Source: a virus (Duplodnaviria; Heunggongvirae; Uroviricota; Caudoviricetes). From it: a DNA stretch of 64,000 bases. The DNA lies in IMG/VR virus record IMGVR_UViG_3300012933_000323, positions 62,432 through 126,431 of that record; one strand, 5' to 3'. Numbering within the stretch: the stretch's first letter is position 1; the number at the start of each line of letters is the position of its first letter. Below, one piece after another: positions 12,036 to 62,461 of this stretch. The notes below the pieces were generated by a model. It searched no databases. It was not told the DNA's origin and saw only the letters and a list, made by a program, of their open reading frames with translations. A program made the position numbers and the translations under genes.

Positions 12036-13160
12036 TTACCAATCATCCAGTTCAGCCGTTTCTTTCCTTAGATCATAATTTAGCGGAGCAACCATTAAAT
12101 CTAAAGGTTTCAAAAATCCTTTTTCAAATTGAGTATCGTAATCAACGCAATTTGCTTTAAGAATTTCCTTTACGAAACCATCGTTGGTATAACCAATGAT
12201 CTCAGTATTGAACACGTTTGGTGTCTGAAGGAAGATTCGTTTACATTTATCTCCAGCCTGGACTGGTGCGTACACGTCTTCTAGATTGTTTTGCTTAATG
12301 TAATGATTATGCATGATGGCAGCACGGGAACCAAACGGCGTACCTTTTTCACCAATCTTATAATCAATGCGAGACACGCCACCTACGCCAGCAATCTGAT
12401 TTAGGTTTACTTTTGTGAACTCATTCTTGATTGATTTAATCCAATCACGTAAATCATTTTCATTCTTGTCAAGAATATGTGGAATTGCTTCTTTTAGATA
12501 TTTCTTAGACCAAGGTGGTGTACTTGACTTAATGATTTCTAAGCCCATGACTTTAATCTTTGGCGCATCATCAGGGTAACGTGTACCTTCTGAATCACGA
12601 ACACGTGCATAGTATTTTTTCTTTGCAGTAAATACAGCCGTGTCAGCAATAATTTCTCGTTCAGCGCCGATCTTATCTTTGTTGTACGCATTCAGTTGAG
12701 CAGCAAACTCTTCAATAGTTTTTTCAATAACTGGTTGAATTACTTTCTTTTCAAACTTGTCTGCGAATTCAACATAGTCATTAATTGGCAAGCCAGGATT
12801 TTGCTGAATGTATTTTTCAATAAACGGTTCAAGATGGTAGTACACAGAGTCGGTATCACCATAAATGATGTACGGTTTTTCTTGTGCCAACAATTTCTGT
12901 AAAGCGTCTTCAATGTTGATAGCCAACTTCTGAATGAAGTATCGACCATTACCAGTAATCGCTGCGGCCATCAACTCATTGAACAGAGGGAACCACTTAT
13001 TAGCCATAGCGCCATAAAGCGAGTTAATCATTGTCTTTTCAACAAGTTGGCGGGTGTTATAAAGTGATTCGCCTTCTTCAGCCTGTGAAAGAAGAATGTT
13101 CAATTCCTCTACAGGCAAAGCGCGTAGTTCATCTTCTGTATATGTAAGTACGTTTTTCAT
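12036..13160 (-). CDS. 43: family-B DNA polymerase, C-terminal fragment (palm motifs B and C, thumb) = gp43B-like
   Basis: Motif B KTMINSLYGAMAN (Kx3NSxYG) and motif C YIIYGDTDSVY. Confidence 0.85.
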   Translation of the reverse strand: MKNVLTYTEDELRALPVEELNILLSQAEEGESLYNTRQLVEKTMINSLYGAMANKWFPLFNELMAAAITGNGRYFIQKLAINIEDALQKLLAQEKPYIIYGDTDSVYYHLEPFIEKYIQQNPGLPINDYVEFADKFEKKVIQPVIEKTIEEFAAQLNAYNKDKIGAEREIIADTAVFTAKKKYYARVRDSEGTRYPDDAPKIKVMGLEIIKSSTPPWSKKYLKEAIPHILDKNENDLRDWIKSIKNEFTKVNLNQIAGVGGVSRIDYKIGEKGTPFGSRAAIMHNHYIKQNNLEDVYAPVQAGDKCKRIFLQTPNVFNTEIIGYTNDGFVKEILKANCVDYDTQFEKGFLKPLDLMVAPLNYDLRKETAELDDW

Positions 13161-13166
13161 GATGTA

Positions 13167-13391
13167 TTATACACCGCTTCTTTTTAAAACACCAAGCACA
13201 ATTTTTGTCACGTCTGCTTCATACTTTTGTTTGGAACACGGCCGACAAAATTTTGATAATTCAGTTGGTTGTTCTTTATCCCAAAATGATGAAAGGCGTT
13301 TCTCACGTTTACAGCATGGGCAAACTTTTGTATTTTCCGTGATGTAACGATGACGCTCCATCGGCCCCATATTTTTGATACTTTTAGCCAT
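13167..13391 (-). CDS. small zinc-ribbon ORF lying in the gap of the split polymerase gene
   Basis: CPCCKREK...CRPCSK motif; the ORF overlaps the stop of the N-terminal polymerase fragment by 8 nt. Confidence 0.35.
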   Translation of the reverse strand: MAKSIKNMGPMERHRYITENTKVCPCCKREKRLSSFWDKEQPTELSKFCRPCSKQKYEADVTKIVLGVLKRSGV

Positions 13392-14985
13392 GTCTTTCCT
13401 TTAGAATTTCTTTGATAAGAATCTTACGTTGTTCAAATTGGAACATCGTCTTTTTTGCGGATTTACGTGAGTCGTAAATTTCTTGAACCATCTCTGGTAC
13501 CATGCCAAGCTTTTCTTTACTAAACACTGCACCGTTGATACCAAGTGTTAGATTATACAACTTAAGTAGATCTGTTGTTGTATCCCAAACTTCGTCAGAT
13601 AGATGTAAACGATTTTCTTCGTTTTGATCATTAAAGTAAGTAAGAACGATATCACGAAGATCTGGTGGTAGCTTACTCTTTGGGATAAACGTTTCAGGAC
13701 TCATGTTGAAACCAACCATACCAAGTAACGGGTACATGGAGTTTACGTCAGCTGATACCACCCATCTATGTTTGCCTGTGTTTGGATCACGAACATAACC
13801 ACCAACGACATGCGGATCAGGAAACTCCTGGCGCATTGGCATAACTTGCATGTTCTTAATAGAACGGTTAGAGATGTACTGTGACCAAGGTTTCACGGTA
13901 CCCATTGAATCGCCGATCTGTACACCCATCTTCTCGGCAATCATACTCATCAATACTGTGAAGTTCTGAGCTTCATCAATACGCTTAATTAGATATGTAT
14001 CGGTTGCGCCGTAGTACACGAATTCCGAATGGGCAAGTTCTTTTACTTCATCCCAGTCACCAGCAATAGCTGCTTTATAGATCAAAGAATTTTTCTGTTC
14101 TTCTGTAGGTTCTTCAGGGATAATGTACTTACCTGTATAGAAGTCGTCAAAGCCAGCGTACTCAGAGTGTTGAACTTTGTTTTCGTTAAGCTCAAACTCT
14201 GCGACGGTGTCCAATGAATATGATGGCATTGGGTGGAATGTGAACTTCTTGTACACATCCATTAAGTCAATCCAAAAGTGACCATCTGCGTTGAACTTAA
14301 ACTCCATCTTGCCTTGGAATTCACCTTCGCTGTATGATACTTTACCGTAGTTTGATAAGCGTGTAGTATCCATGCCTAGGTTCTTTAGGCGGTTATGAAT
14401 GTATGGGAAGTCAAATCCTGAACCGTTCCATGCATACACGATCAATGGATCTAGTTTCTTATAGATGTTTAGGAATGTTTCTAATAGGTGGATTTCATCT
14501 GTACACTTTACATACTTAACTTGATATTTAAATACATAAAGGCTTTGATGTTTCCATTCGCGAAGGCCAAGAATGAACATTGTCTTGACTTCTGAATCAT
14601 AGAACTGCATCAATGAGATGGGTTCTAATGCTTTTTCTGGGACTGGGAAACCAGTACTACATGTACCTACACGTGTTTCAATGTCGAGATACCAGATGCG
14701 TGGAGATGCGTTATAACCACGCTCTTTGCCCCAATAGTTATCGCGGATATTGCGATACATTGGATCCAAGAAACCGTAGTGTTCACGGCCTTGTTTGGCG
14801 TTGCCTTGCTTCTTTTCTAACTTAATTGTTTCATCAAGAATATATGTATAGATACCACGAGATGATGGCTCATACCATTCATACGGTAGATCAATCTGCT
14901 TCTTAACCGAACGATTTAATTGATCATCATACGCTCGTTCATAGAAATTGTAACCATCACGCCAAGTAGCTTCAAATAATTTCAT
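13384..14985 (-). CDS. 43: family-B DNA polymerase, N-terminal fragment (3'-5' exonuclease + motif A) = gp43A-like
   Basis: Exo I WYLDIETR, further exonuclease motifs, and motif A ADVNSMYPLL (DxxSLYPS). Confidence 0.85.
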   Translation of the reverse strand: MKLFEATWRDGYNFYERAYDDQLNRSVKKQIDLPYEWYEPSSRGIYTYILDETIKLEKKQGNAKQGREHYGFLDPMYRNIRDNYWGKERGYNASPRIWYLDIETRVGTCSTGFPVPEKALEPISLMQFYDSEVKTMFILGLREWKHQSLYVFKYQVKYVKCTDEIHLLETFLNIYKKLDPLIVYAWNGSGFDFPYIHNRLKNLGMDTTRLSNYGKVSYSEGEFQGKMEFKFNADGHFWIDLMDVYKKFTFHPMPSYSLDTVAEFELNENKVQHSEYAGFDDFYTGKYIIPEEPTEEQKNSLIYKAAIAGDWDEVKELAHSEFVYYGATDTYLIKRIDEAQNFTVLMSMIAEKMGVQIGDSMGTVKPWSQYISNRSIKNMQVMPMRQEFPDPHVVGGYVRDPNTGKHRWVVSADVNSMYPLLGMVGFNMSPETFIPKSKLPPDLRDIVLTYFNDQNEENRLHLSDEVWDTTTDLLKLYNLTLGINGAVFSKEKLGMVPEMVQEIYDSRKSAKKTMFQFEQRKILIKEILKERHG

Positions 14986-28853: not shown

Positions 28854-29426
28854 TTAAACAACTTTGTCAATTAAACCTAAGCATTTTGCATCTTCAGCTG
28901 ACATATAAAAGTCACGTTGTGTTTTCATTTTTAATGTTTCTAATGTAGATTTGCCGTTTGTAAAGTTGGCAATATCAATTAGTAAACTATCTTGTAAGAA
29001 CTTTGTTTCTTCATAATCAATTTTCATGTCATGAAATGTACCCATTGTCCCAGAACTAACGGAGTGAATCATAATACGGCAATGCTTCATTGCCCTACGT
29101 TCTCCAGTTCCTGATGCTAACAAGTAAGCACCCATTGACGCACACATACCAACACCAACTGTATTTACTTTGCACGGGATATGATCAATAATATCTTTAA
29201 TGGCCAATCCATCATACACAGAACCACCTGGGCTATTAATGTAAAAATTAATTGGTAACTCAGGATTATCCGCAGCAAGCCAAAGCATCTGCATAATGAT
29301 AATATTTGCGGTATCAGGATTTACATCCTCTCCCAAATATACAATTCGGTCTTGCAGCAATCGACTTGGTAAATCGATTGGTTTTTCTGAGCGACCGGTT
29401 TTTTCAATTACGTTTGGGATTAACAT
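28854..29426 (-). CDS. clpP: ClpP serine protease homolog
   Basis: INSPGGSVYDGLAIKDII...GMCASMGAYLLASG...CRIMIHSV is collinear with E. coli ClpP (INSPGGVITAGMSIYD...GQAASMGAFLL...SRVMIHQP). Confidence 0.85.
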   Translation of the reverse strand: MLIPNVIEKTGRSEKPIDLPSRLLQDRIVYLGEDVNPDTANIIIMQMLWLAADNPELPINFYINSPGGSVYDGLAIKDIIDHIPCKVNTVGVGMCASMGAYLLASGTGERRAMKHCRIMIHSVSSGTMGTFHDMKIDYEETKFLQDSLLIDIANFTNGKSTLETLKMKTQRDFYMSAEDAKCLGLIDKVV

Positions 29427-31754: not shown

Positions 31755-32633
31755 CTAAATAAAGTACTCAGCGTACTTTAAACGAACTTCTTGTTTATCT
31801 GTACACTTATATGATGGCATTTTTATTGATCTTAGCAATAAAAATAGATATAGTTCGTCAGACATATCTTTTATTTCTTTATCAAGCAAAGCTGGCAACT
31901 TAGAAAATATATTTAATCTAGTTGGTACATCCTTTGATTGAATGTAGTCATGGACAGCTTGCGCTATTTCAATGAAATCATTTCTGATTGCGTTTTCAAG
32001 TAGTTCTGTACCAGTGATACATGGCTGCGCTTTGTATCCTGTGTCAAAACGTACATCGCAATTATTGATTAAATATCTAATGATCTGCTTATAAGTAACG
32101 TTATCATCATCTTTACAATTCTTTTTGGATTTGTACTTATGATAGCGTTCAAGAACCATGCCATTGATATTTTTCTCGTCAACAGTAATATGTGTTGTGT
32201 AATGTACACTTTTCACAAATTCACCTTGTGATGTATATGCAACTTTACTACAATTAAAATCAAATGTTGACATAACATCATGCACATCTCCGACATGTAA
32301 TTTCACAAATTGTATCTGGCGTCGCAACGGCGATTTTGCTAAAGACGGTACGGTTACAGCATTTGATGTCACATAAGAATTTACAGTACACGTGATAGTG
32401 GTAATATCGCCGTCAACAGTTATTGCTGATTGATTATCTGGTGATAATTTATTTATGACAGCATCGCAATCTTCCTGTGTGTAGAAAAATACATCGATGT
32501 CGTCATAAACACTATTGTCATTAATAACACTATAAACACTACCACCAGCCACGAAGAATGGAACTTGAACTCCAAGCTCTTCCAAATAATCATTGACAGT
32601 TTTAACCAACTTCTCTAACTGGTGGACATACAT
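31755..32633 (-). CDS. nucleotidyltransferase with a CCA-adding/poly(A)-polymerase head-domain signature
   Basis: Motif A GGSVYSVINDNSVYDDIDV (compare GGxVRDxLLGxxxxDxD) and motif-B-like TFDFNCSKVAY (compare RDFTINALAY). The likely start is the ATG at 32633, 1 nt after the upstream stop; the track begins at 32684. Confidence 0.5.
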   Translation of the reverse strand: MYVHQLEKLVKTVNDYLEELGVQVPFFVAGGSVYSVINDNSVYDDIDVFFYTQEDCDAVINKLSPDNQSAITVDGDITTITCTVNSYVTSNAVTVPSLAKSPLRRQIQFVKLHVGDVHDVMSTFDFNCSKVAYTSQGEFVKSVHYTTHITVDEKNINGMVLERYHKYKSKKNCKDDDNVTYKQIIRYLINNCDVRFDTGYKAQPCITGTELLENAIRNDFIEIAQAVHDYIQSKDVPTRLNIFSKLPALLDKEIKDMSDELYLFLLLRSIKMPSYKCTDKQEVRLKYAEYFI

Positions 32634-32634
32634 T

Positions 32635-33738
32635 TTATTCTTTGTCAGCAGCCTGAACAATGCGTTTGAAAAGCTTTTTATCATTTAACATGGTATCTAC
32701 TGCAGCCAGCTTTTTGTACATCTCAGGCTCATCCTTGCGATAACTCTTCAAGAATGCAACACAGATCTCAATTTCAAGACTGTACATATAAACCAAGAAT
32801 GGCAAAATGTCATCCTTCTTCATATGTCGTTGTGCTAACTGACGAGCCATTTCAGTTTTACGAATAGCTTCAGTCTTTGCCATTCGTTCAGAAATTAGTT
32901 CAGCGAGCTCTTCAATTGTTTCTGTAGTATCTTTGTTATCTTCAACGATAGATTCAATGTCTTCTGCTTTAATAACATCAACGTAGTTCTTGAAGAACGA
33001 ATAGAACTGAGACGCAATTTCTGTTCCGACTTTACCTTTCATAACTTGAAAGAGGATGTCTTCTGAAATATCGTTAACACGATCCATGAAGTCGCCAAGC
33101 TTTGCCCATGAACGTGGCGTAGCACCGATGCCACCATCACTAGGTGTCCAATGCAAGCGATCTGGGAATTCACCAATGAAGTCCAACACAATTTGGTTCA
33201 CTTCATTTTTACGACCCCATTTAAGAAACGCTGGTGCATCAGCTTCAACAGAAACATGCAAGAATCGGTCAAGCAATGCAGGGTCAAGTTCGTCAACTTG
33301 GTAATCAGATGCCGGATTAATCGCAGCAACAACCAGTGTACGAACACCATTAACAATAGGCAATGTATGTTCATGGATTTGTCGTTCAAGCACAAGCTGC
33401 AATGCAGATTGACGAACGTCAATTGGTGCGCGGTTCAACTCATCTAGGAATAGAACGCTATGCTTACCTTCGGATGCCGCCTTATGCATACGCTGCAACC
33501 AAATTGGCATTGACCATGTGGTGAGCGTTAAACCATCATGTTCGATGGTGTGTGGAATACCAATAAGATCACCGACTTCTTGGTGTGAAAGGAAAAGTTC
33601 TACAAGGTGATAACCTTGTTCATTGGCAAATTGCTTGACAATGTTTGACTTACCAATGCCGTGTGGGCCTTCCATGATAACAGTATCATCGGCTAACGCA
33701 GCTGCTTTAATGATTTCCTTTGCGGATTGGATGTCCAT
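32635..33738 (-). CDS. MoxR/CobS-like AAA+ ATPase
   Basis: Walker A MEGPHGIGKS, Walker B VLFLDELNRA, and sensor region LLDRF are present. Confidence 0.65.
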   Translation of the reverse strand: MDIQSAKEIIKAAALADDTVIMEGPHGIGKSNIVKQFANEQGYHLVELFLSHQEVGDLIGIPHTIEHDGLTLTTWSMPIWLQRMHKAASEGKHSVLFLDELNRAPIDVRQSALQLVLERQIHEHTLPIVNGVRTLVVAAINPASDYQVDELDPALLDRFLHVSVEADAPAFLKWGRKNEVNQIVLDFIGEFPDRLHWTPSDGGIGATPRSWAKLGDFMDRVNDISEDILFQVMKGKVGTEIASQFYSFFKNYVDVIKAEDIESIVEDNKDTTETIEELAELISERMAKTEAIRKTEMARQLAQRHMKKDDILPFLVYMYSLEIEICVAFLKSYRKDEPEMYKKLAAVDTMLNDKKLFKRIVQAADKE

Positions 33739-36624: not shown

Positions 36625-37113
36625 TTAAATATCGCCTTCATAACCAGCAGGTACGATTAAACCACTGTCTAATACGACACCATTGATTGTGTGAGGTTCA
36701 TTTTCATCATAAGTCCAGCCTAAATGTTTCATCATCTTATGTTTAACCAAAAGATTAGGACTACGAAAGACTTCGGTATCATCAAAGCCAAGCATCACGC
36801 CAATTTCGCAAACTGCACCACTACGACATACACCAGCTACGCAATGAACAATCACGTTCATATGATTTTCTTTAGCGTGTTGTAATAGTTCAACCAACTG
36901 CTTTGCTTGGTCATCTGTGACTTTGAATTCTTCACCCCAAGGATCATCCTTCTCTAAGTCTAGAAACTCAAATTGGTGAGTCTCTTTAAATTGATAGAGC
37001 GGTGTTGGGAATTCCATTGCTGGATCAACAATCTGGATCAACATGGCATTAATACCAGGATTGATATGGTGGCCTTTTGTAATATCAGCCAGTGCTACGT
37101 TTTGAATCCACAT
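36625..37113 (-). CDS. protein tyrosine/dual-specificity phosphatase (CX5R)
   Basis: P-loop VHCVAGVCRSG. Confidence 0.6.
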   Translation of the reverse strand: MWIQNVALADITKGHHINPGINAMLIQIVDPAMEFPTPLYQFKETHQFEFLDLEKDDPWGEEFKVTDDQAKQLVELLQHAKENHMNVIVHCVAGVCRSGAVCEIGVMLGFDDTEVFRSPNLLVKHKMMKHLGWTYDENEPHTINGVVLDSGLIVPAGYEGDI

Positions 37114-39039: not shown

Positions 39040-39585
39040 TCACCAATCTGAAGATGGACTTGACGAACTATCAGAAGAACTCCAAGAAGATGAACTATCT
39101 GATGAACTTGACGAACTTGAAGAACCCCATGAATAGCTTGGGGATTCATCCCTGTAACTTGGCGACGTATCTTTGTATGGTACATCATCATTACGACTTG
39201 AGCTTCGAGAAGTGTCGCTATGTGAACTCATGATGTTATTAATCACCATTGCGGTTACCACATTATCAACGAAACTGTCATCTTGCTTTGTCACTGTTTG
39301 CGCAGTAGGTTTGTTATCAGCATAAATGTACGTTCTTGGTTGGTTCTTTGCCGCTTTTTCTAACTCAGCTTTGCGATCAGCATCTTGCTTAGCAAGGGCT
39401 GCTCTTGCGTAACGCTTGCTTTCAGCTTCGCGAGCTTCACGCCCACGGCGCATGATTTCTTCATTCAATTCATTGCGCGCTTTTTGTTTAGCACGGCATG
39501 ATTTTACAATACTAACAATCATGTAAATTCCAATGAAAAGGATTAAGGAGGCAAAACCTCCTAAGATTAGGAGGTCTTCCATCAC
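39040..39585 (-). CDS. membrane-anchored protein with charged helix and Ser-rich low-complexity tail
   Basis: N-terminal TM segment, a KQKARNELNEEIMRRGREAREAE helix, and a C-terminal SSSSSSSSDSSSSWSSSDSSSS tail. Confidence 0.4.
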   Translation of the reverse strand: MMEDLLILGGFASLILFIGIYMIVSIVKSCRAKQKARNELNEEIMRRGREAREAESKRYARAALAKQDADRKAELEKAAKNQPRTYIYADNKPTAQTVTKQDDSFVDNVVTAMVINNIMSSHSDTSRSSSRNDDVPYKDTSPSYRDESPSYSWGSSSSSSSSDSSSSWSSSDSSSSPSSDW

Positions 39586-40931
39586 TTGCCTTTCGATGTA
39601 AATTTATCTAGCAGTTGTTTACCGATCTCGCTTTGGGCAAGTCCTTCAAGAGCTGCACCAACATTGCTACCACCTTGTGAAGTAAACAATTCACCTAGTG
39701 AACTAATACCGCCAGTGACGGTACCGCTGTTAGCAATAACCTTGATGTCTGCTTTATCCAATGCGCGAGCTTGTTCAACACCGATTGCCTGGTTAGCTTC
39801 AACTTGACGAATTGTGATAAGGTACTGTTGGTAACTTTGGTTCTCGCCGATTTCTTTAGCAAGGACAATCTGTGCTTCAACTGGAGCAAGTTGTAGTAAC
39901 TTTTCAGCTTCAGCTTTAGCTTGACCGTTAACCAATAGACCTTCAGCTTCTCGTTTCTGAGCTTCAAGAGTACCTTCAGCAATTAGAACCGTTTTCTGCT
40001 TTTGACCTTCGGCACTGATAACATCAGTTTGCTTACGTTCTTCAGCTTGAACAATATTAACGTCTTTAGTAATCTCTGCAGCTTTCACGTTTTCAACACG
40101 TTGAACTTCCATTGATTTTTCAGCAGTTACTTTTTGTTGCTGTTTGATGTCTTGTTGAGCCATCTCATTGGCAATACCAACCGCTTTATCTTTCTCAGCC
40201 GTTTTGATACCAACTTGTTCAGCAGCCAATTGGCGATTAATTTCAACTTCACGTTGAGCATCAATCTCAGCATTTTGAGCAGCTTTCTTGTTAGATGCAA
40301 CGACGATTCGTGATTCTTTTTCGATCTCGGACTTTTTCTTGTCCATGATATTCTGAATTACTTGTGAATCTCGACTGTCTCGAATGTCCATCAGTTCGAT
40401 GTTCTTAACAGTTGTAACACCCCAAGCTTTGAGTTGTTCGTTAACTTCTTTTGTGAAAGCATCACCGAACTCAGAACGACCTTGCATGATTTCTTCAATC
40501 GTTTTGCTTGCAAGAATTGTACGAGCAGCACCTTGAAGAATAGACATCAATTGTGAACTAAGTTCTTGGAAACTAAATACACGTTGAGCCGCAATGTTTG
40601 AATTCTCAATACGGAAGAATGCTTCAAGGTCAAGTACGAATGGCAAGCGACCGTTGTCATATGCTTCATAGTCTTTCAAGCGCAAACTAAACACAGATAC
40701 TGGAAGTTTGATAACTTGAATACCAATTACTGGAATCCAACTTGGCCACTCATAGTAAGTATTACCGTCTGCTTGATCTTTACCGTAAGAAACGGTTTGT
40801 TTTGAACTTTGGATAATGTGTACTTCATTAGTGCTTACAACACGACGAAGACCTAGAATCCAAAATACGATTGTTAATGTAAATGCAATAGCAAGCATTA
40901 GTCCAATTGTGGGGAGGAGTGCGATTTCCAT
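39582..40931 (-). CDS. flotillin-like SPFH/Band-7 membrane protein
   Basis: N-terminal TM segment, an SPFH core, and a long flotillin-type Ala/Glu/Gln-rich coiled coil (AEQVGIKTAEKDKA... EAQK). Confidence 0.6.
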   Translation of the reverse strand: MEIALLPTIGLMLAIAFTLTIVFWILGLRRVVSTNEVHIIQSSKQTVSYGKDQADGNTYYEWPSWIPVIGIQVIKLPVSVFSLRLKDYEAYDNGRLPFVLDLEAFFRIENSNIAAQRVFSFQELSSQLMSILQGAARTILASKTIEEIMQGRSEFGDAFTKEVNEQLKAWGVTTVKNIELMDIRDSRDSQVIQNIMDKKKSEIEKESRIVVASNKKAAQNAEIDAQREVEINRQLAAEQVGIKTAEKDKAVGIANEMAQQDIKQQQKVTAEKSMEVQRVENVKAAEITKDVNIVQAEERKQTDVISAEGQKQKTVLIAEGTLEAQKREAEGLLVNGQAKAEAEKLLQLAPVEAQIVLAKEIGENQSYQQYLITIRQVEANQAIGVEQARALDKADIKVIANSGTVTGGISSLGELFTSQGGSNVGAALEGLAQSEIGKQLLDKFTSKGK

Positions 40932-40942
40932 TTTTGTCTTTC

Positions 40943-41743
40943 TTACTTATTCACAACCACTTGACCTTTGAAGTCACGTGGAACGATGATGGTATTGATA
41001 TGACCAGCCAATGCAGCTTGTGAGTAGTTCAACTCTGCTTGTGCTTGGATGTAAGCAATAGATTGTGCACCTTGGCTTGATAGTGCTTGCATACGCTGAG
41101 CTTCAAGTTTCGCGGTTTCAACCTCTACTTCTTTCTGACGCTTTTCGTTTTTAGAACGAACCAATGAGTTAGCAGACTCAACAACGATGTCGGCTGGAAC
41201 TACACTACGAATAAGAACTTGCGTAATATTGATAGCGCCGTCAAGACCTTCATCATGCAATGTTTTCTGAATTTGCTCTTTAATTGCAATTTCCATAGCT
41301 TGACGGTTATCACCCATGTCAAGAGCTTCGTATTTGCGAGCTTCTTTGTACATTGCATTACGAGCCGCGTTGTAGATGTAGTTAAACATCAAGTAAGTAT
41401 CACCGTCATGACGAACGTGGAATGCTTTAGACTTTGTGTTGTAAAGTTCAGCAACCTGTGACTGGTTCAAACTGTAGATAACAATAGCATCAACATCTTT
41501 CATTGTTGAGTTATCTTTAGCAACCGGTGTCATGTCATCAAGTTTGACGTTGACATCCTTAACTGGAAATGTAAGAACATCGCCAACTAGTGTTTGGTTC
41601 CAAGAACCTGGTACCAACTCTGTCGTGTTGACTTGTTTGTTGATATCAACACGAAGGCCGACCTCACCTGTCTCGATGCGAGTGCACCCAGTGGTAAGGA
41701 CGGCCAGTGCGCCAATAATGGCAAAAGACTTCAAAATTTTCAT
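40943..41743 (-). CDS. SPFH/Band-7 domain lipoprotein (prohibitin/HflC-like)
   Basis: Lipobox LTTGC, an SPFH core, and a C-terminal coiled coil. Confidence 0.5.
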   Translation of the reverse strand: MKILKSFAIIGALAVLTTGCTRIETGEVGLRVDINKQVNTTELVPGSWNQTLVGDVLTFPVKDVNVKLDDMTPVAKDNSTMKDVDAIVIYSLNQSQVAELYNTKSKAFHVRHDGDTYLMFNYIYNAARNAMYKEARKYEALDMGDNRQAMEIAIKEQIQKTLHDEGLDGAINITQVLIRSVVPADIVVESANSLVRSKNEKRQKEVEVETAKLEAQRMQALSSQGAQSIAYIQAQAELNYSQAALAGHINTIIVPRDFKGQVVVNK

Positions 41744-41801
41744 ATCTTTCCTTCTTCAAAAATACACCAAAATTGGTGCGATATGAAAATTATAACATAG
41801 A

Positions 41802-44800
41802 TTAGTTAAAGTATTTCAAGAATTTTTCATATTCCTTAGGATAATTCACTCTAAAATCTCTAACTGATGTAAATGTGTAGTCCATGTTGTTTTCGGTGCC
41901 AGCCACTACAATGGTTGGTCCGTATGCAGATGGTTCTAAAGTAATTTTATCTGATGGAGATTTAAATTCTGTGAAGTCACAAACGTTTTCAGGGTTTGGC
42001 CCATTTGGCAGAATGCCATTAATAAATGTGTATGTTGTGTAGTTCATCTTCTCATCAATCTGTTCTGTTAAATAATCTTTAAATGATTTCTCTGTCACGG
42101 CTTGTTGGTATTTCTTTAATAGATCATTCATATCCGTTGGGCTGATTAGTTCTACTTCATAGGCTTGGTAAATCTTAAACTGTGCATTTGGTGTAAATAC
42201 ACACCATTCTGGCGAACGAATACTATCAGATCCTAAACCAGCAACTTTATAATCAACACCCTTTGTACCAAGCGCTGCGTTCATCTTAAAGATGTAACCC
42301 TTGGTACCGTAGCGACGTGAAAATCCAGTATCACCAACATATTGCTGAGCTTTATCAATAATGTTTGAACCGTAAATACCATCACCAAGCATACGGCCAA
42401 CTACTAAAGAATCACCAGACTTAAGAACTCTAAAGCCATAGCGTAGAATCATTGAAGCACCAATAGAACCAGTTCCATGGAACATTGGGTTAATGATTTC
42501 TTCACCTTCGTGTGAGGCCATCCATGCCTTTTGTTGTTCTTCTTGGATAGGGATAGACACTTTAAATGATTTGATGACTCTTAGTGTAGTATCACCGTGA
42601 CGGCCATTTCGTTTGTTTCTATGTAAGTCAACTGAAATTCTGTCGAGGTCTTCTTGTGAAGCATTAACAACTTCAACCTTTTGACCTTCTAGTTTGCCAT
42701 GACTGTAATCGTTATCCTTAACATCTTTGATGTAAGCATCCATTGTATCAAACGTCTTTGTGAATTTAGCAGGCACTTTCGTTTCGGCGTTAGATACGTT
42801 ATTGTATTTTAGGATTTCTTTGATACGTTTCTTATCTAGTTTTTGGTAAGGTACAATTGGGCTTTCATCATTGTGCAATAGGCCTTCAACAGTTGAAGAG
42901 AACCCAGCTTTCGTTAGGTAACTTTCTGCCATACGAGCACGCATGTTATATGACATTTTGTCATACATTTTTTGAGCACCAGCACGATCTTCATCTACCA
43001 TATTATCAAAGTATTCCTGCACAGCACCAACGTTGTCTTTGAAATAGTTTGATTGTTTCTTAATCCATGTGGCGTCGTCCATAAGATCTAATGTACTATT
43101 AAAGATTGCGTCCTTTTGAACTTTAGAAATATTCTTATAGTCTTTAGTGTTAACATTCTCAAGAATATCGCTAACGCTATGTTGACGATTACTTTGCTTA
43201 ATCATCTGGAATGTTCTTGTTATTGCAGAATCAATGTCATCTTTAAATGCATCAGTGTATTCGTTAATCGCAAGCATATCGTTCAATGTACTAACTTGCG
43301 TAGTATCTATGAAGATACGTTTCTTGTCTGGGTTAGAAAAATATCTCGTGAAAATTGTTGTCTTTTCAGCTTCATCAAAATTACCAACGGTATTTGAAAG
43401 ATTATGATAGCCAATCTTCTGCAATTCTGTATCGGATAACGCGGCAATAAATTCAGAGTCAGTTAAAGCCATAGTGCCAGTCGCATTATGAATAAACATA
43501 TATGCTGGTTTTGTCTTTGCGTTCAAATCTTTATATGTGAATACCTTGCCTATGCCAGCAACACTGTTAAGTATTGATGTAGTATCACTCTTTCTACCAG
43601 ATAGTTCGTTAAGTGTCGATAACTTAAATACAATATCGTTCAATAATGTAGTTTGTTCATCTGATGTCAAAATATCCCAAATGTTATTTCTTTGGGTGAT
43701 ATGAGTATACACTTGATTGCTGTACGTGTCGATATTTCTCATGTCCAACGCAGATTCGTGAATCTTGTCTGCAATGTCTTTACGCAAAGAAGCATTTGCA
43801 CGAACCAATCTAACAAAATGCGAGAACATTGATGTCGTACCAGGTACTGTTCCCATGCTACGAATTCTTCTTAAGATTGTGTTAAGATCAACACCTGCTC
43901 CAATGATGAATGAAATAAGATGAGTATTTAGTTTATCAAGTTTTCTATTTTCAGCTAAAGATAGTGTATATGAGAATACGTTCAGAACATTTTCATGGTC
44001 AGTACTTGACATTCGTTTCTTTACGAACTCATCTAACTTAGCAATTAGTTTATCTGTCAATAATTCGATGTCGTAACCACTTATATAGCTAAGAATGCCA
44101 CGAATGAATATCAACGCTTTAATATCGTCAAACTGATCAATGATTTGAATAAGTTGTTGCTCAATTGATTGTAAAGCTGTAGCACTAAACGGCTTGGCGC
44201 CGTATGTAGTTGTTAGCAAACGATCAAAGTCATATCCATAACCGTAAGTACCGGTTGTTCTAATAGCGTATGCTAAGATGATGTTATCTTTATCTGATTT
44301 GGTTAAATGGTATTCGTTCATGATCGCTTTGATCGTATTGTTATTCCAATCAAATTCAGAATCAGCGTATGATAGAACACTTGTGCCGTTTACGTTTTGT
44401 ACACTTGAACCAAGTGACATGATGAACTCATCAACGGTTTTAAATTTTAAGTAAGAGTTAATAAATTGTATGTTCGGACCACCAGAAATATATCCTGGAC
44501 GAATGCCGTGATCAAGTTTAGAAACAGTTTCTTTTGCTTCTTTAAGATTAGCTGCATTTGGGTTATCAAACAAACTCTTGGCTAAACCACCAAATACATT
44601 TTGCATTGTGTATTTGAACTGAGCATAATCACATGCATTAATAACACCATCAAACAAACCGATATTTTGCGCAATCAGAAGCCTCTTTACCATGTGCGCA
44701 TAATTTTTTGATAAGCGAATAGCACTATCAATAGTACCGGACATAGTACTTAATACATTTTTAGTTTGTACGTTTGCAGTAATGAATTTTGCAAGTTCTT

Positions 44801-45707
44801 TTAATTGCGGTTCTTGTGGTTCATTTGATGTACTCATGATCATCTGCAGAGATGCAATTAATGCACCTTTTCTTTGTTCAGCTGTACTCTTATAAACGTT
44901 ATTGAAGTTATCAAGAGTTCCACCATTTACAAAATATGCAACAACTTGCATATTTCCTGGCCACTCTTGCTTTTCAATTTTTTCAGGCTTCTTTGGTTTC
45001 TCGACTTGCTTTGGTGTGGCAGGCACTTGTACTACAGGTTCCACGGTTGGTGCAATTGCTTTACTAATTCCAGCGATGTTTGCCAATCTATGGTCAATAG
45101 ATTTCTTAGACATCATATCAACGTCCCAAGCAGTTATCTTTGACTTCTCAACGTTCAACCCTCTAAATGCATCAAAGAAATCCTTAGATACATCCGTCTG
45201 AACACGTGCACGAACACGTAAGTTCATAAATGCTTTGTACTGATCTTTGTCAAGAATGAATTCTTCTTTAGTTACCTTTAGGTGTGATCCTAATTTTGAC
45301 CACCATGAATCTTTGATCCCGTTCATCCACTCGATAAGAATGGTTGGATCTACTTCATCAATACCACCTTGCTTTAATTTAACCAAGAATCTTGTGATTT
45401 GTGCAGATGTAGTTGAACTCTTAAAAGCACCCTTGTCATCTAGTAATTTAATGATCAATGACATGTTGTTATTTTCATCTGAAATGTTGTTCAGTTGAAG
45501 TTTTAAGTCATTTTTAAAATATGTATGAGCTCTTTGTTTATCTTTAATAATGTTGTAGCCGATTAGCATACCAACAAAATTAAACATAAAAGCAGACATC
45601 ATGGCCTTTTCATCGGTCACGAATGTCTGCTTTGAAGTTGCGTCTGTATAAAGTGTATTTTCGCGTAGAGCTTCTTGCTGTTTGCGATATTCATTAAAAG
45701 TCGTCAT
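41802..45707 (-). CDS. 1301-aa multidomain protein with a C-terminal PARP-like (H-Y-E) ADP-ribosyltransferase catalytic domain
   Basis: [20 protein letters not shown] aligns with PARP1 [41 protein letters not shown] aligns with [41 protein letters not shown] aligns with [20 protein letters not shown], which holds the catalytic Glu. The catalytic region maps to about nt 42130..42540. Confidence 0.6.
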   Translation of the reverse strand: [1301 protein letters not shown]

Positions 45708-62242: not shown

Positions 62243-62461
62243 TTACTCATCTTTACTCATTGATTTGAACATTATGTACGCTGAATTAACGTCAATTGCT
62301 ATTACGATAAACAGAATACTTAGAAATTCGCCGACTCTATTCATGATACTAACACCAACCACCCCAAGCATAAATCCAAGCAAAGCGTACAGCAAGATGC
62401 TTAGATAGTTTGTACTCAAATATTGTTTAATCATCTTAACCTCCGAAATAGATTGCGCCAC
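62243..62461 (-). CDS. small membrane protein
   Basis: 72-aa ORF with two TM segments. Confidence 0.35.
   Translation of the reverse strand: MAQSISEVKMIKQYLSTNYLSILLYALLGFMLGVVGVSIMNRVGEFLSILFIVIAIDVNSAYIMFKSMSKDE

Follow-up and report, generated by a model that had tools for sequence, protein, structure and literature searches.

Adjacent SPFH genes on a viral contig show no detectable paralogy and may belong to separate modules

The actual role of SPFH and flotillin proteins in bacteria is largely unclear (PMC12005517). T4-like phages were already noted in 2006 to carry open reading frames (ORFs) of this family, whose function continues to be called unclear (PMC1524935, PMC7760394, PMC13239085); they are routinely annotated, with a function described as 'poorly understood' or 'unclear', and none of the papers found tests it (PMC1524935, PMC7760394, PMC10892097, PMC13239085, PMC13384950). 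The described systems closest to the locus reported here are the HflK/HflC-FtsH complex of Escherichia coli, the FloT and YqiK proteins, the eukaryotic flotillin-1/2 cage and the E. coli pair of the stomatin-like protein QmcA and the NfeD protein YbbJ. We analysed a stretch of 64,000 nucleotides from a virus of the class Caudoviricetes (positions 62,432 to 126,431 of the IMG/VR record IMGVR_UViG_3300012933_000323), hereafter the window. A first-pass annotation had placed three ORFs at 39040-41743 of the window, and they are present there on the minus strand, co-directional and tightly packed 3' of an ORF of 1301 amino acids. They encode an SPFH lipoprotein, a flotillin-like SPFH protein and a membrane protein with a serine-rich tail (Ser-tail protein). 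With some reserve we consider it probable that two independent SPFH modules are combined at this locus, each forming its own scaffold that would reorganise or protect the host envelope.

Both SPFH proteins contain the family core. A check for assignment to an unrelated coiled-coil family without that core came out negative: both proteins score above the curated Pfam cutoff of 23.6 bits for Band_7 (PF01145), the lipoprotein with 53.4 bits (E=4.4e-14) and the flotillin-like protein with 62.5 bits (E=6.9e-17, domain span 31-214). The lipoprotein had been described as a lipobox (LTTGC) followed by an SPFH core, and it indeed carries a signal peptide and matches phrog_200, named 'lipoprotein', with E=1.4e-30. 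Its lipobox, MKILKSFAIIGALAVLTTG-C (LTTG-C), fits the PROSITE-style pattern, as do those of nearly all of 120 homologs, and every pattern-matching homolog (n=105) reads 'TRI' at positions +2 to +4 after the cysteine. The mature N-terminus, C-TRIETGEVGLRV, leads directly into the SPFH domain, which is followed by a helix rich in Ala, Glu, Gln and Lys (residues ~184-245) and then by the conserved C-terminal segment 'IVVPxDFKGQVVV'. As a lipoprotein it must be periplasmic, with a predicted lipid anchor.

The description of the second protein as an N-terminal transmembrane (TM) segment, an SPFH core and an Ala/Glu-rich coiled coil likewise stands. A single hydrophobic segment spans residues ~3-28; residues 200-400 consist to 51% of Ala, Glu, Gln and Lys, and this helical region of ~200 residues is followed by a Gly-rich C-terminus. 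The protein thus shows the flotillin-type architecture of N-terminal anchor, SPFH domain and extended A/E-rich coiled coil, and its best sequence matches in the PDB are human flotillin-2 and flotillin-1 (E=5e-10, query residues 61-347, covering SPFH domain and coiled coil). At E<=0.01, the sole NCBIfam match was a weak one to FloT (E=1.9e-9), whose score against the FloT equivalog NF058507 is 37.1 bits versus a cutoff of 700; comparison with YqiK by BLASTP gives no significant match (E=0.28), and the family hidden Markov model (HMM) matches QmcA with E=9e-12. By these sequence comparisons, the 449-residue protein is flotillin-like but no ortholog of FloT or YqiK. The flanks of its TM segment are acidic or neutral on the N-terminal and basic on the C-terminal side in 121 of 121 family members (ME-TM-RR in the window); they resemble those of YqiK (MDD-TM-R..RR) and QmcA, unlike that of HflC (MRK-TM). 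In YqiK and QmcA, the SPFH domain faces the cytoplasm. The acidic N-terminus, TM segment and RR of the phage protein resemble theirs, so that a cytoplasmic SPFH domain, held by an N-out anchor, is predicted here too.

The first-pass annotation had likened the two SPFH proteins to the HflK/HflC heterocomplex. Such a heteromeric cage, in which both proteins alternate in one ring that encloses and regulates host FtsH, would be in keeping with the adjacency of the two genes, which stay together in the window lineage, with the HflK/C-FtsH complexes that head the fold matches of the lipoprotein model and with the name given to the lipoprotein family by the Joint Genome Institute (JGI), 'regulator of protease activity HflC'. 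The two proteins, however, show no detectable paralogy by sequence comparison: they align with E=0.46 in BLASTP, and their family alignments, compared by hhalign, reach a probability of 0.5%, whereas the control comparison of E. coli HflK with HflC gives E=2.5e-9. These comparisons show two deeply separated subfamilies, one with a predicted lipid anchor and the other with a predicted TM anchor, and the two proteins are predicted to lie on opposite sides of the inner membrane. At E<=0.01, NCBIfam gave neither protein a match to an HflK- or HflC-named family, and the lipoprotein had no NCBIfam match at all at that threshold.

Gene neighbourhoods speak against a heteromeric cage too. We compared the window with loci on other viral contigs (numbered L004, L017, L101-L108 and so on), surveying the 80 best lipoprotein loci and 17 viral loci of the flotillin-like gene with 6-kb flanks. 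None of the 17 contigs carries the lipoprotein gene, the Ser-tail gene or the 1301-residue ORF within 6 kb of the flotillin-like gene, and none of the 80 lipoprotein loci carries the flotillin-like gene; co-occurrence of the two SPFH genes is limited to one lineage, that of the window. The syntenic relative L108 has no flotillin-like gene. Each SPFH gene is thus found without the other in nearly all other phages. Isolated phages with the flotillin-like gene are mainly those of Vibrio, Xanthomonas and Brevundimonas, and isolated phages with the lipoprotein gene mainly those of Salmonella, Acinetobacter and Escherichia; Erwinia is the only genus on both lists. The absence of paralogy, the opposite predicted faces, the lack of co-occurrence (0/17 and 0/80) and the missing NCBIfam match together leave the HflK/HflC comparison unsupported, and we regard a shared ring as very improbable.

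The flotillin-like gene is a self-contained single-gene mobile cassette, common to Proteobacteria and unrelated phages. DNA similarity between the window and the 17 viral loci (~80% nucleotide and 85-92% protein identity) begins and ends at the borders of the gene, and the flanking genes vary from contig to contig (T4-type clamp and clamp loader, tail fibre, baseplate, RNA ligase, DNA polymerase). Chromosomal homologs with 54-64% identity reside on contigs binned to Arenimonas, Methylophilus and other metagenome-assembled genomes; two of them, read through ORF translations, stand alone between housekeeping-type genes without an NfeD partner. No NfeD domain was found by Pfam among the genes neighbouring the phage gene, and the Ser-tail protein shows no similarity to YbbJ or YqiJ. 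As the cassette moves between unrelated phages, it presumably works without a host-specific partner. Its ratio of nonsynonymous to synonymous substitution rates (dN/dS) is 0.03-0.08, with dS around 1 or above, and that of the lipoprotein gene is 0.03-0.16, and both genes are under strong purifying selection. Just downstream of the flotillin-like gene, five loci (L004, L005, L010, L012, L013) have a convergent small gene on the opposite strand, whose product combines a conserved MFGFIKKLFG N-terminus with a Lys/Ala/Pro-rich tail. Low-complexity ORFs 3' of the flotillin-like gene in L004, L005 and L013 were set aside as the wrong strand of this unrelated K/A/P-rich gene.

The lipoprotein gene, by comparison, is a resident backbone gene of the window's phage lineage and co-occurs with backbone genes of that lineage in ~29 of the 80 loci. 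Its product has 4,793 homologs at E<=1e-5 and 391 relatives on viral contigs, and tblastn relatives occur in 196 records of isolated phages, including Ackermannviridae-type Salmonella phages and Acinetobacter phages; the window protein shares only 26-44% identity with these isolated-phage versions. The conserved unit of the locus is the lipoprotein together with the Ser-tail protein. In 21 of 22 informative loci, from ~13 distinct lineages, a Band_7 lipoprotein gene directly precedes the Ser-tail gene in the same orientation; the two often overlap by 1 nt and otherwise lie up to ~800 nt apart, and the pairing reaches distant T4-like contigs in which the Ser-tail homolog is recognised only at E ~1e-6 to 1e-8. 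The dependence is one-way, most lipoprotein loci (75/80) being without a Ser-tail gene; there, the slot downstream holds other small membrane or pilin-like genes, or the sliding-clamp gene follows directly.

The syntenic 191-kb contig L108 has the gene order p154-giant-lipoprotein-SerTail-p127-p137-AAA33, which is the order of the window minus the flotillin-like gene alone. Its junction reads TAAtATGGAAGACCTCCTA, the lipoprotein stop codon being followed by 'tATGGAAGACCTCCTA'. At the window junction, the TAA of the lipoprotein gene is followed by an 11-nt spacer, the flotillin-like gene and then TGATGGAAGACCTCCTA, and the start ATGGAAGACCTCCTA, the same as in L108, comes after the flotillin-like stop codon. 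The identity matrices of the two SPFH proteins are incongruent: between L101 and L102, identity is 95% for the lipoprotein and 88% for the flotillin-like protein, whereas between the window and L101 it is 84% and 93%, respectively. Because the direct lipoprotein-SerTail order is found in all more distant lineages, we read the flotillin-like cassette as an apparent insertion between the lipoprotein and Ser-tail genes, into a variable slot. A membrane protein of 148-178 residues (MKLFGRSGGYYLFW...) recurs after the lipoprotein gene in L023-L032, L045-L047, L075, L083, L112 and others, which marks the slot as a variable site for small membrane proteins. Prepilin-type small proteins (MKQRGFTLIEM...) are encoded after the lipoprotein gene in L035, L037, L045, L056, L085 and L097; they are echoed by the consecutively numbered ORF097c, with an N-methylation motif, and ORF098c, an SPFH protein, of phage 44RR (PMC1524935). 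In some relatives (L112, 9187..9882, and L023, L024, L026, L027), a Bax1-I (YccA-like) gene and a ClpP gene are found at 1-6 kb from the lipoprotein gene. The Bax1-I/YccA lead was dropped, the gene being near the lipoprotein gene in some relatives only and absent from the window, and an 'NfeD-like' lead in L112 turned out to be an ordinary full-length ClpP, a backbone gene whose window copy lies at 28854..29426.

Table 1. Features of the SPFH locus in the window.
Feature	Position in window	Strand	Remarks
SPFH lipoprotein	40943..41743	-	266 aa; lipobox, Band_7, phrog_200
Flotillin-like SPFH protein	39582..40931	-	449 aa; TM anchor, Band_7, flotillin PDB matches
Ser-tail membrane protein	39040..39582	-	180 aa from ATG at 39582; phrog_10669
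Hypervariable middle of Ser-tail gene	39125..39500	-	codes for predicted cytoplasmic linker from TM segment to tail
Promoter-like element and 5' hairpin	41764..41812	-	upstream of lipoprotein gene ribosome-binding site
Giant PARP-like ORF	41802..45707	-	1301 aa, directly upstream of cluster

A lipoprotein gene adjoining the gene of a single-pass membrane protein, with stop and start codons that overlap in relatives, also brings to mind a spanin-like lysis pair, in which an outer-membrane lipoprotein and a protein of the inner membrane bring about membrane fusion at lysis. An i-spanin is anchored N-in with a periplasmic coiled coil and an o-spanin is short and Pro-rich (PMC6139136). The lipoprotein, with 266 residues and an SPFH domain, is no short Pro-rich o-spanin, and the TM protein is predicted to be N-out/C-in with its long part in the cytoplasm; moreover, the gene order is opposite to that of Rz/Rz1 and the cell-wall hydrolase gene is ~4 kb off, which brings the probability of a lysis function of this kind close to negligible.

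The Ser-tail ORF was earlier outlined as 39040..39585 (181 aa) with a TM segment, a charged helix and a Ser-rich tail, of which the domain description holds and the start does not: translation almost certainly begins at ATG 39582 and not at GTG 39585, since the resulting MEDLL... matches the N-termini of homologs and the ATG has a 1-base overlap with the upstream stop codon (TGATG). The ORF encodes an N-terminal TM segment, a helix of 50% charged residues and a tail in which 52% of the last 60 residues are Ser; it matches phrog_10669 (9e-11). The family alignment shows an N-terminus of the MEDLLILGGF type with the TM segment, a basic charged stretch, a 'DDGFMDxVMTAxVLN' segment (DDxFxDxVxTAxVxN) and the Ser/Trp-rich, acidic tail, which has invariant residues and ends in SSPSSDW. 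Homologs were obtained through inspection of neighbouring genes, an HMM and a protein database; a peptide-pattern scan of viral contigs for the protein found none. The Pfam label SARAF on some homologs is probably compositional, and the window protein has no Pfam match. The protein is predicted to be single-pass TM with N-out/C-in topology. The same tail module occurs in L017 (5044..5976, plus strand), in a protein of 310 residues whose signal peptide, TPR-like periplasmic domain and single TM segment are followed by the Ser/Trp tail ending in SSSDSSW; its gene lies directly upstream of a flotillin-like gene on a T4-like contig without the SPFH lipoprotein. As a signal peptide, a periplasmic domain and a TM segment precede the tail in this protein, the tail module is presumably cytoplasmic. 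Approximately 2 kb downstream of the Ser-tail gene, the window encodes a Cys-based dual-specificity/tyrosine-phosphatase-like protein (36625..37113, minus strand) with the motif HCVAGVCRSG, whose DSPc match (E=2e-7) is just under threshold, and a similar gene is also near the flotillin-like gene in L016.

Nucleotide identity between the window and L105 is 90-98% over the block, drops to 37-62% at ~39125-39500 and returns to 97% at the tail, and dS of the Ser-tail gene is 1.37 compared with 0.19-0.23 in its neighbours. The identity drop and the raised dS suggest allele replacement by recombination in the middle of the gene. Replacement between near-identical phages is what an arms race predicts, and it would fit superinfection exclusion or envelope gating, in which the SPFH lipoprotein and its fast-evolving partner block the entry of a competing genome and the flotillin-like protein is an unrelated add-on. 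Known exclusion proteins include the periplasm-facing lipoproteins T5 Llp and TP-J34 Ltp (PMC9586334, PMC3952083), and the varied small membrane and pilin-like proteins in the slot 3' of the lipoprotein gene of other phages are also compatible with such a role. The hypervariable part of the Ser-tail protein, however, is predicted to be cytoplasmic and not periplasmic, the lipoprotein is strongly conserved, no sequence relation was seen to any known exclusion protein, and the Ser-tail gene is absent at 75 of the 80 lipoprotein loci; exclusion therefore appears decidedly unlikely. A PADLOC scan of four proteins gave no meaningful match to defence-system models.

The three genes had further been described as lying downstream of a giant PARP-domain protein, for which the membrane proteins might provide a docking platform. 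The adjacency is real, and the giant ORF adjoins the cluster in the window, L101, L102 and L108; the PARP match (E=0.0018, 18.2 bits) is below the Pfam threshold of 26.7 bits, and one of the protein's phage homologs is annotated as an ADP-ribosyltransferase. Homologs of the giant protein are found in Aeromonas phages of the Aeh1 type and in phages of Stenotrophomonas, Ralstonia and Pseudomonas. Against docking stand L105-L107, which are otherwise syntenic and keep the three genes (lipoprotein 96%, flotillin-like protein 99%, downstream genes 88-96% identity) in the absence of the giant gene. Between the giant and the SPFH genes, moreover, lies a promoter-like element, recognised by consensus match and conservation, with the motif ACTTTAAC at about -30, which we take to resemble the MotA box of T4 middle promoters, and an extended -10 motif TGTTATAAT at 41797..41789, separated by a 19-nt spacer. 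It is followed by a 5' hairpin (41779..41764) and the ribosome-binding site GAAGGAAAG of the lipoprotein gene. The element recurs in L101, L102, L108 and, with no giant gene upstream, in L105/L107; a generic promoter scan, which showed no enrichment over shuffles, missed it because of the 19-nt spacer. Both SPFH families are also widespread without such a neighbour. The three-gene cluster is independent of the giant PARP-like gene, and a docking function is highly improbable.

Structure predictions provide family-level support only. The AlphaFold2 models of both SPFH proteins are poor (predicted local distance difference test scores of 56 and 51), because the family alignments are 69-99% identical. 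With the low-confidence lipoprotein model, the top 45 Foldseek matches in the PDB are all SPFH proteins, HflK/C first, with TM-scores of ~0.3; a fold search with the model of the flotillin-like protein gave no match, and sequence and family-profile searches of PDB sequences with the lipoprotein gave none either. The fold matches raise the possibility that the lipoprotein by itself, with or without its Ser-tail partner, is a lipid-anchored mimic of HflK/C that cages or displaces an inner-membrane protein exposed to the periplasm, such as FtsH, and thereby alters host or phage protein turnover. Like HflK/C it would be periplasmic, and the anchor spacing is comparable: the putatively lipidated Cys lies three residues ahead of the SPFH start 'ETGEVGLRV', and the TM segment directly precedes 'EGERGITLRFGK' in HflC and 'EAERGVVTRFGK' in HflK. 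YccA is a substrate and modulator of FtsH, and the Bax1-I (YccA-like) and ClpP genes found 1-6 kb off in some relatives could be seen in the same light. Yet ClpP is a backbone gene whose window copy is ~11 kb away, the window has no Bax1-I gene, HflK/C are the best fold matches only at low TM-scores and with a low-confidence model, no PDB sequence match was obtained even with the family profile, and the idea fails if the lipoprotein goes to the outer membrane. We consider such mimicry unlikely, though worth keeping in play.

The explanation that we favour, with two modules combined at one locus, would work as follows. Module 1 would be an old two-gene unit of environmental T4-like phages, made up of the periplasmic SPFH lipoprotein and the single-pass membrane protein encoded downstream; module 2 would be the single-gene flotillin-like cassette, exchanged among unrelated phages and placed exactly between the genes of module 1. 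By analogy with solved SPFH complexes, of which HflK/C, prohibitin, stomatin, erlin and flotillin are among the structure matches, each SPFH protein would assemble into its own homo-oligomeric ring or cage, the lipoprotein ring on the periplasmic side of the inner membrane and the flotillin-like ring on its cytoplasmic face, and each ring would fence off a membrane patch. The benefit to the phage would be generic, in that the host envelope is reorganised or stabilised during infection; alternatively, the lipoprotein may control access to a conserved periplasm-exposed membrane protein. Since the cassette works alone in unrelated phages and diverse Proteobacteria, its target is probably universal, for instance the membrane as such or a membrane protein of high conservation, and we accordingly favour envelope stabilisation or compartmentalisation as the role of the flotillin-like protein. 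For the other module we favour a periplasmic scaffold formed by the lipoprotein, with the Ser-tail protein as its putative client or adaptor and the variable cytoplasmic region of the latter as the part that would be under arms-race pressure, and we regard FtsH mimicry and superinfection exclusion as live alternatives.

Several observations weigh against this explanation. The order of all three genes is kept in the window and in 7 of 7 lineage loci (L101-L107), with lipoprotein identities of 84-96%, and the stop codon of the flotillin-like gene overlaps the Ser-tail start, so that functional cooperation of all three proteins is possible. It is also possible that L108 lost the cassette instead of the others having gained it, the identity matrix being not strictly decisive. 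L017 pairs a tail-module protein with a flotillin-like gene while the lipoprotein is absent, which hints that the tail module may also be linked to the flotillin-like protein. We infer the topology of the latter solely from its charge distribution and its resemblance to YqiK and QmcA, and in a control the charge of the C-terminal flank by itself failed to separate HflK/C from the others. The lipoprotein, with Thr at +2, may be sorted to either the inner or the outer membrane, and with both models of low confidence the oligomeric states are assumed by analogy. In a bolder reading, the three proteins would form one trans-membrane structure, in which a periplasmic lipoprotein ring and a cytoplasmic flotillin ring are aligned across the inner membrane by the Ser-tail protein, making a phage-built membrane compartment with a specificity conferred by the hypervariable region. 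The Ser/Trp-rich acidic tail would then be a general SPFH-binding motif, as suggested by its fusion to another membrane protein beside the flotillin-like gene in L017. We judge this single structure to be quite improbable.

The phage itself is a divergent T4-like myovirus, without a close relative among sequenced isolates. Among the products of the window are a terminase, a DnaB-type helicase, a gp44-like clamp loader, an RNA ligase, ClpP, a cell-wall hydrolase and enzymes of NAD salvage. The terminase shares 66% identity with that of the ~191-kb Vibrio phages pv27 and phiKT1024 and is related to ~2,600 T4-type records, relatives carry homologs of T4 gp59, gp32, gp45, gp44 and RegA, and the region had no megablast match among 50,697 phage records. 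The family-B DNA polymerase is split into two minus-strand ORFs (12036..13160 and 13384..14985) that are ~220 nt apart, one comprising the exonuclease domain together with the polymerase's N-terminal part and the other the remaining polymerase domain. Next to an AAA_5 ATPase (32635..33738), the minus-strand ORF 31755..32684 has an ortholog in relatives with the precomputed Pfam label Gad2 (PF26128), an anti-Gabija protein; a Pfam scan of the window ORF gave no match at E<=0.001.

As far as the literature searched shows, the lipoprotein-SerTail module, its hypervariable segment and the flotillin-like mobile cassette inside the module are new, and no description of an SPFH lipoprotein paired with a Ser-tail protein was found there. 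The pairing puts a fast-evolving partner in the place of the usual NfeD partner. That lytic phages keep two SPFH genes under strong purifying selection offers a compact system in which the benefit of a flotillin can be measured. The comparison also has corrective value, in that neither the 'phage HflK/HflC' nor the 'dock for giant protein' interpretation is supported.

Set beside the known systems, the locus shares with E. coli HflK/HflC-FtsH the SPFH fold, a periplasmic SPFH domain that begins at the membrane anchor (in the lipoprotein) and the adjacency of two SPFH genes. HflK and HflC, however, are paralogs with N-in TM anchors on one face of the membrane, whereas one member of the phage pair is predicted to be lipid-anchored and the other to be cytoplasmic, and the pairing of the phage genes is conserved in one lineage only. 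With FloT and YqiK the flotillin-like protein has in common the N-terminal anchor, the SPFH domain and the long A/E-rich coiled coil; it differs from them in that the NfeD partners YuaF and YqiJ have no equivalent beside the phage gene or its chromosomal homologs. The eukaryotic flotillin-1/2 cage (PDB 9bq2, 9l3g) is its best sequence match of solved structure, yet that cage is a heteromer of two paralogs, whereas the phage has a single flotillin-like gene, for which a homo-oligomer is presumed. QmcA, the stomatin-like partner of YbbJ, shows the N-out anchor and cytoplasmic SPFH domain that are predicted for the phage protein, but has 305 residues, a short coiled coil and an NfeD partner, compared with 449 residues and no NfeD partner in the phage.

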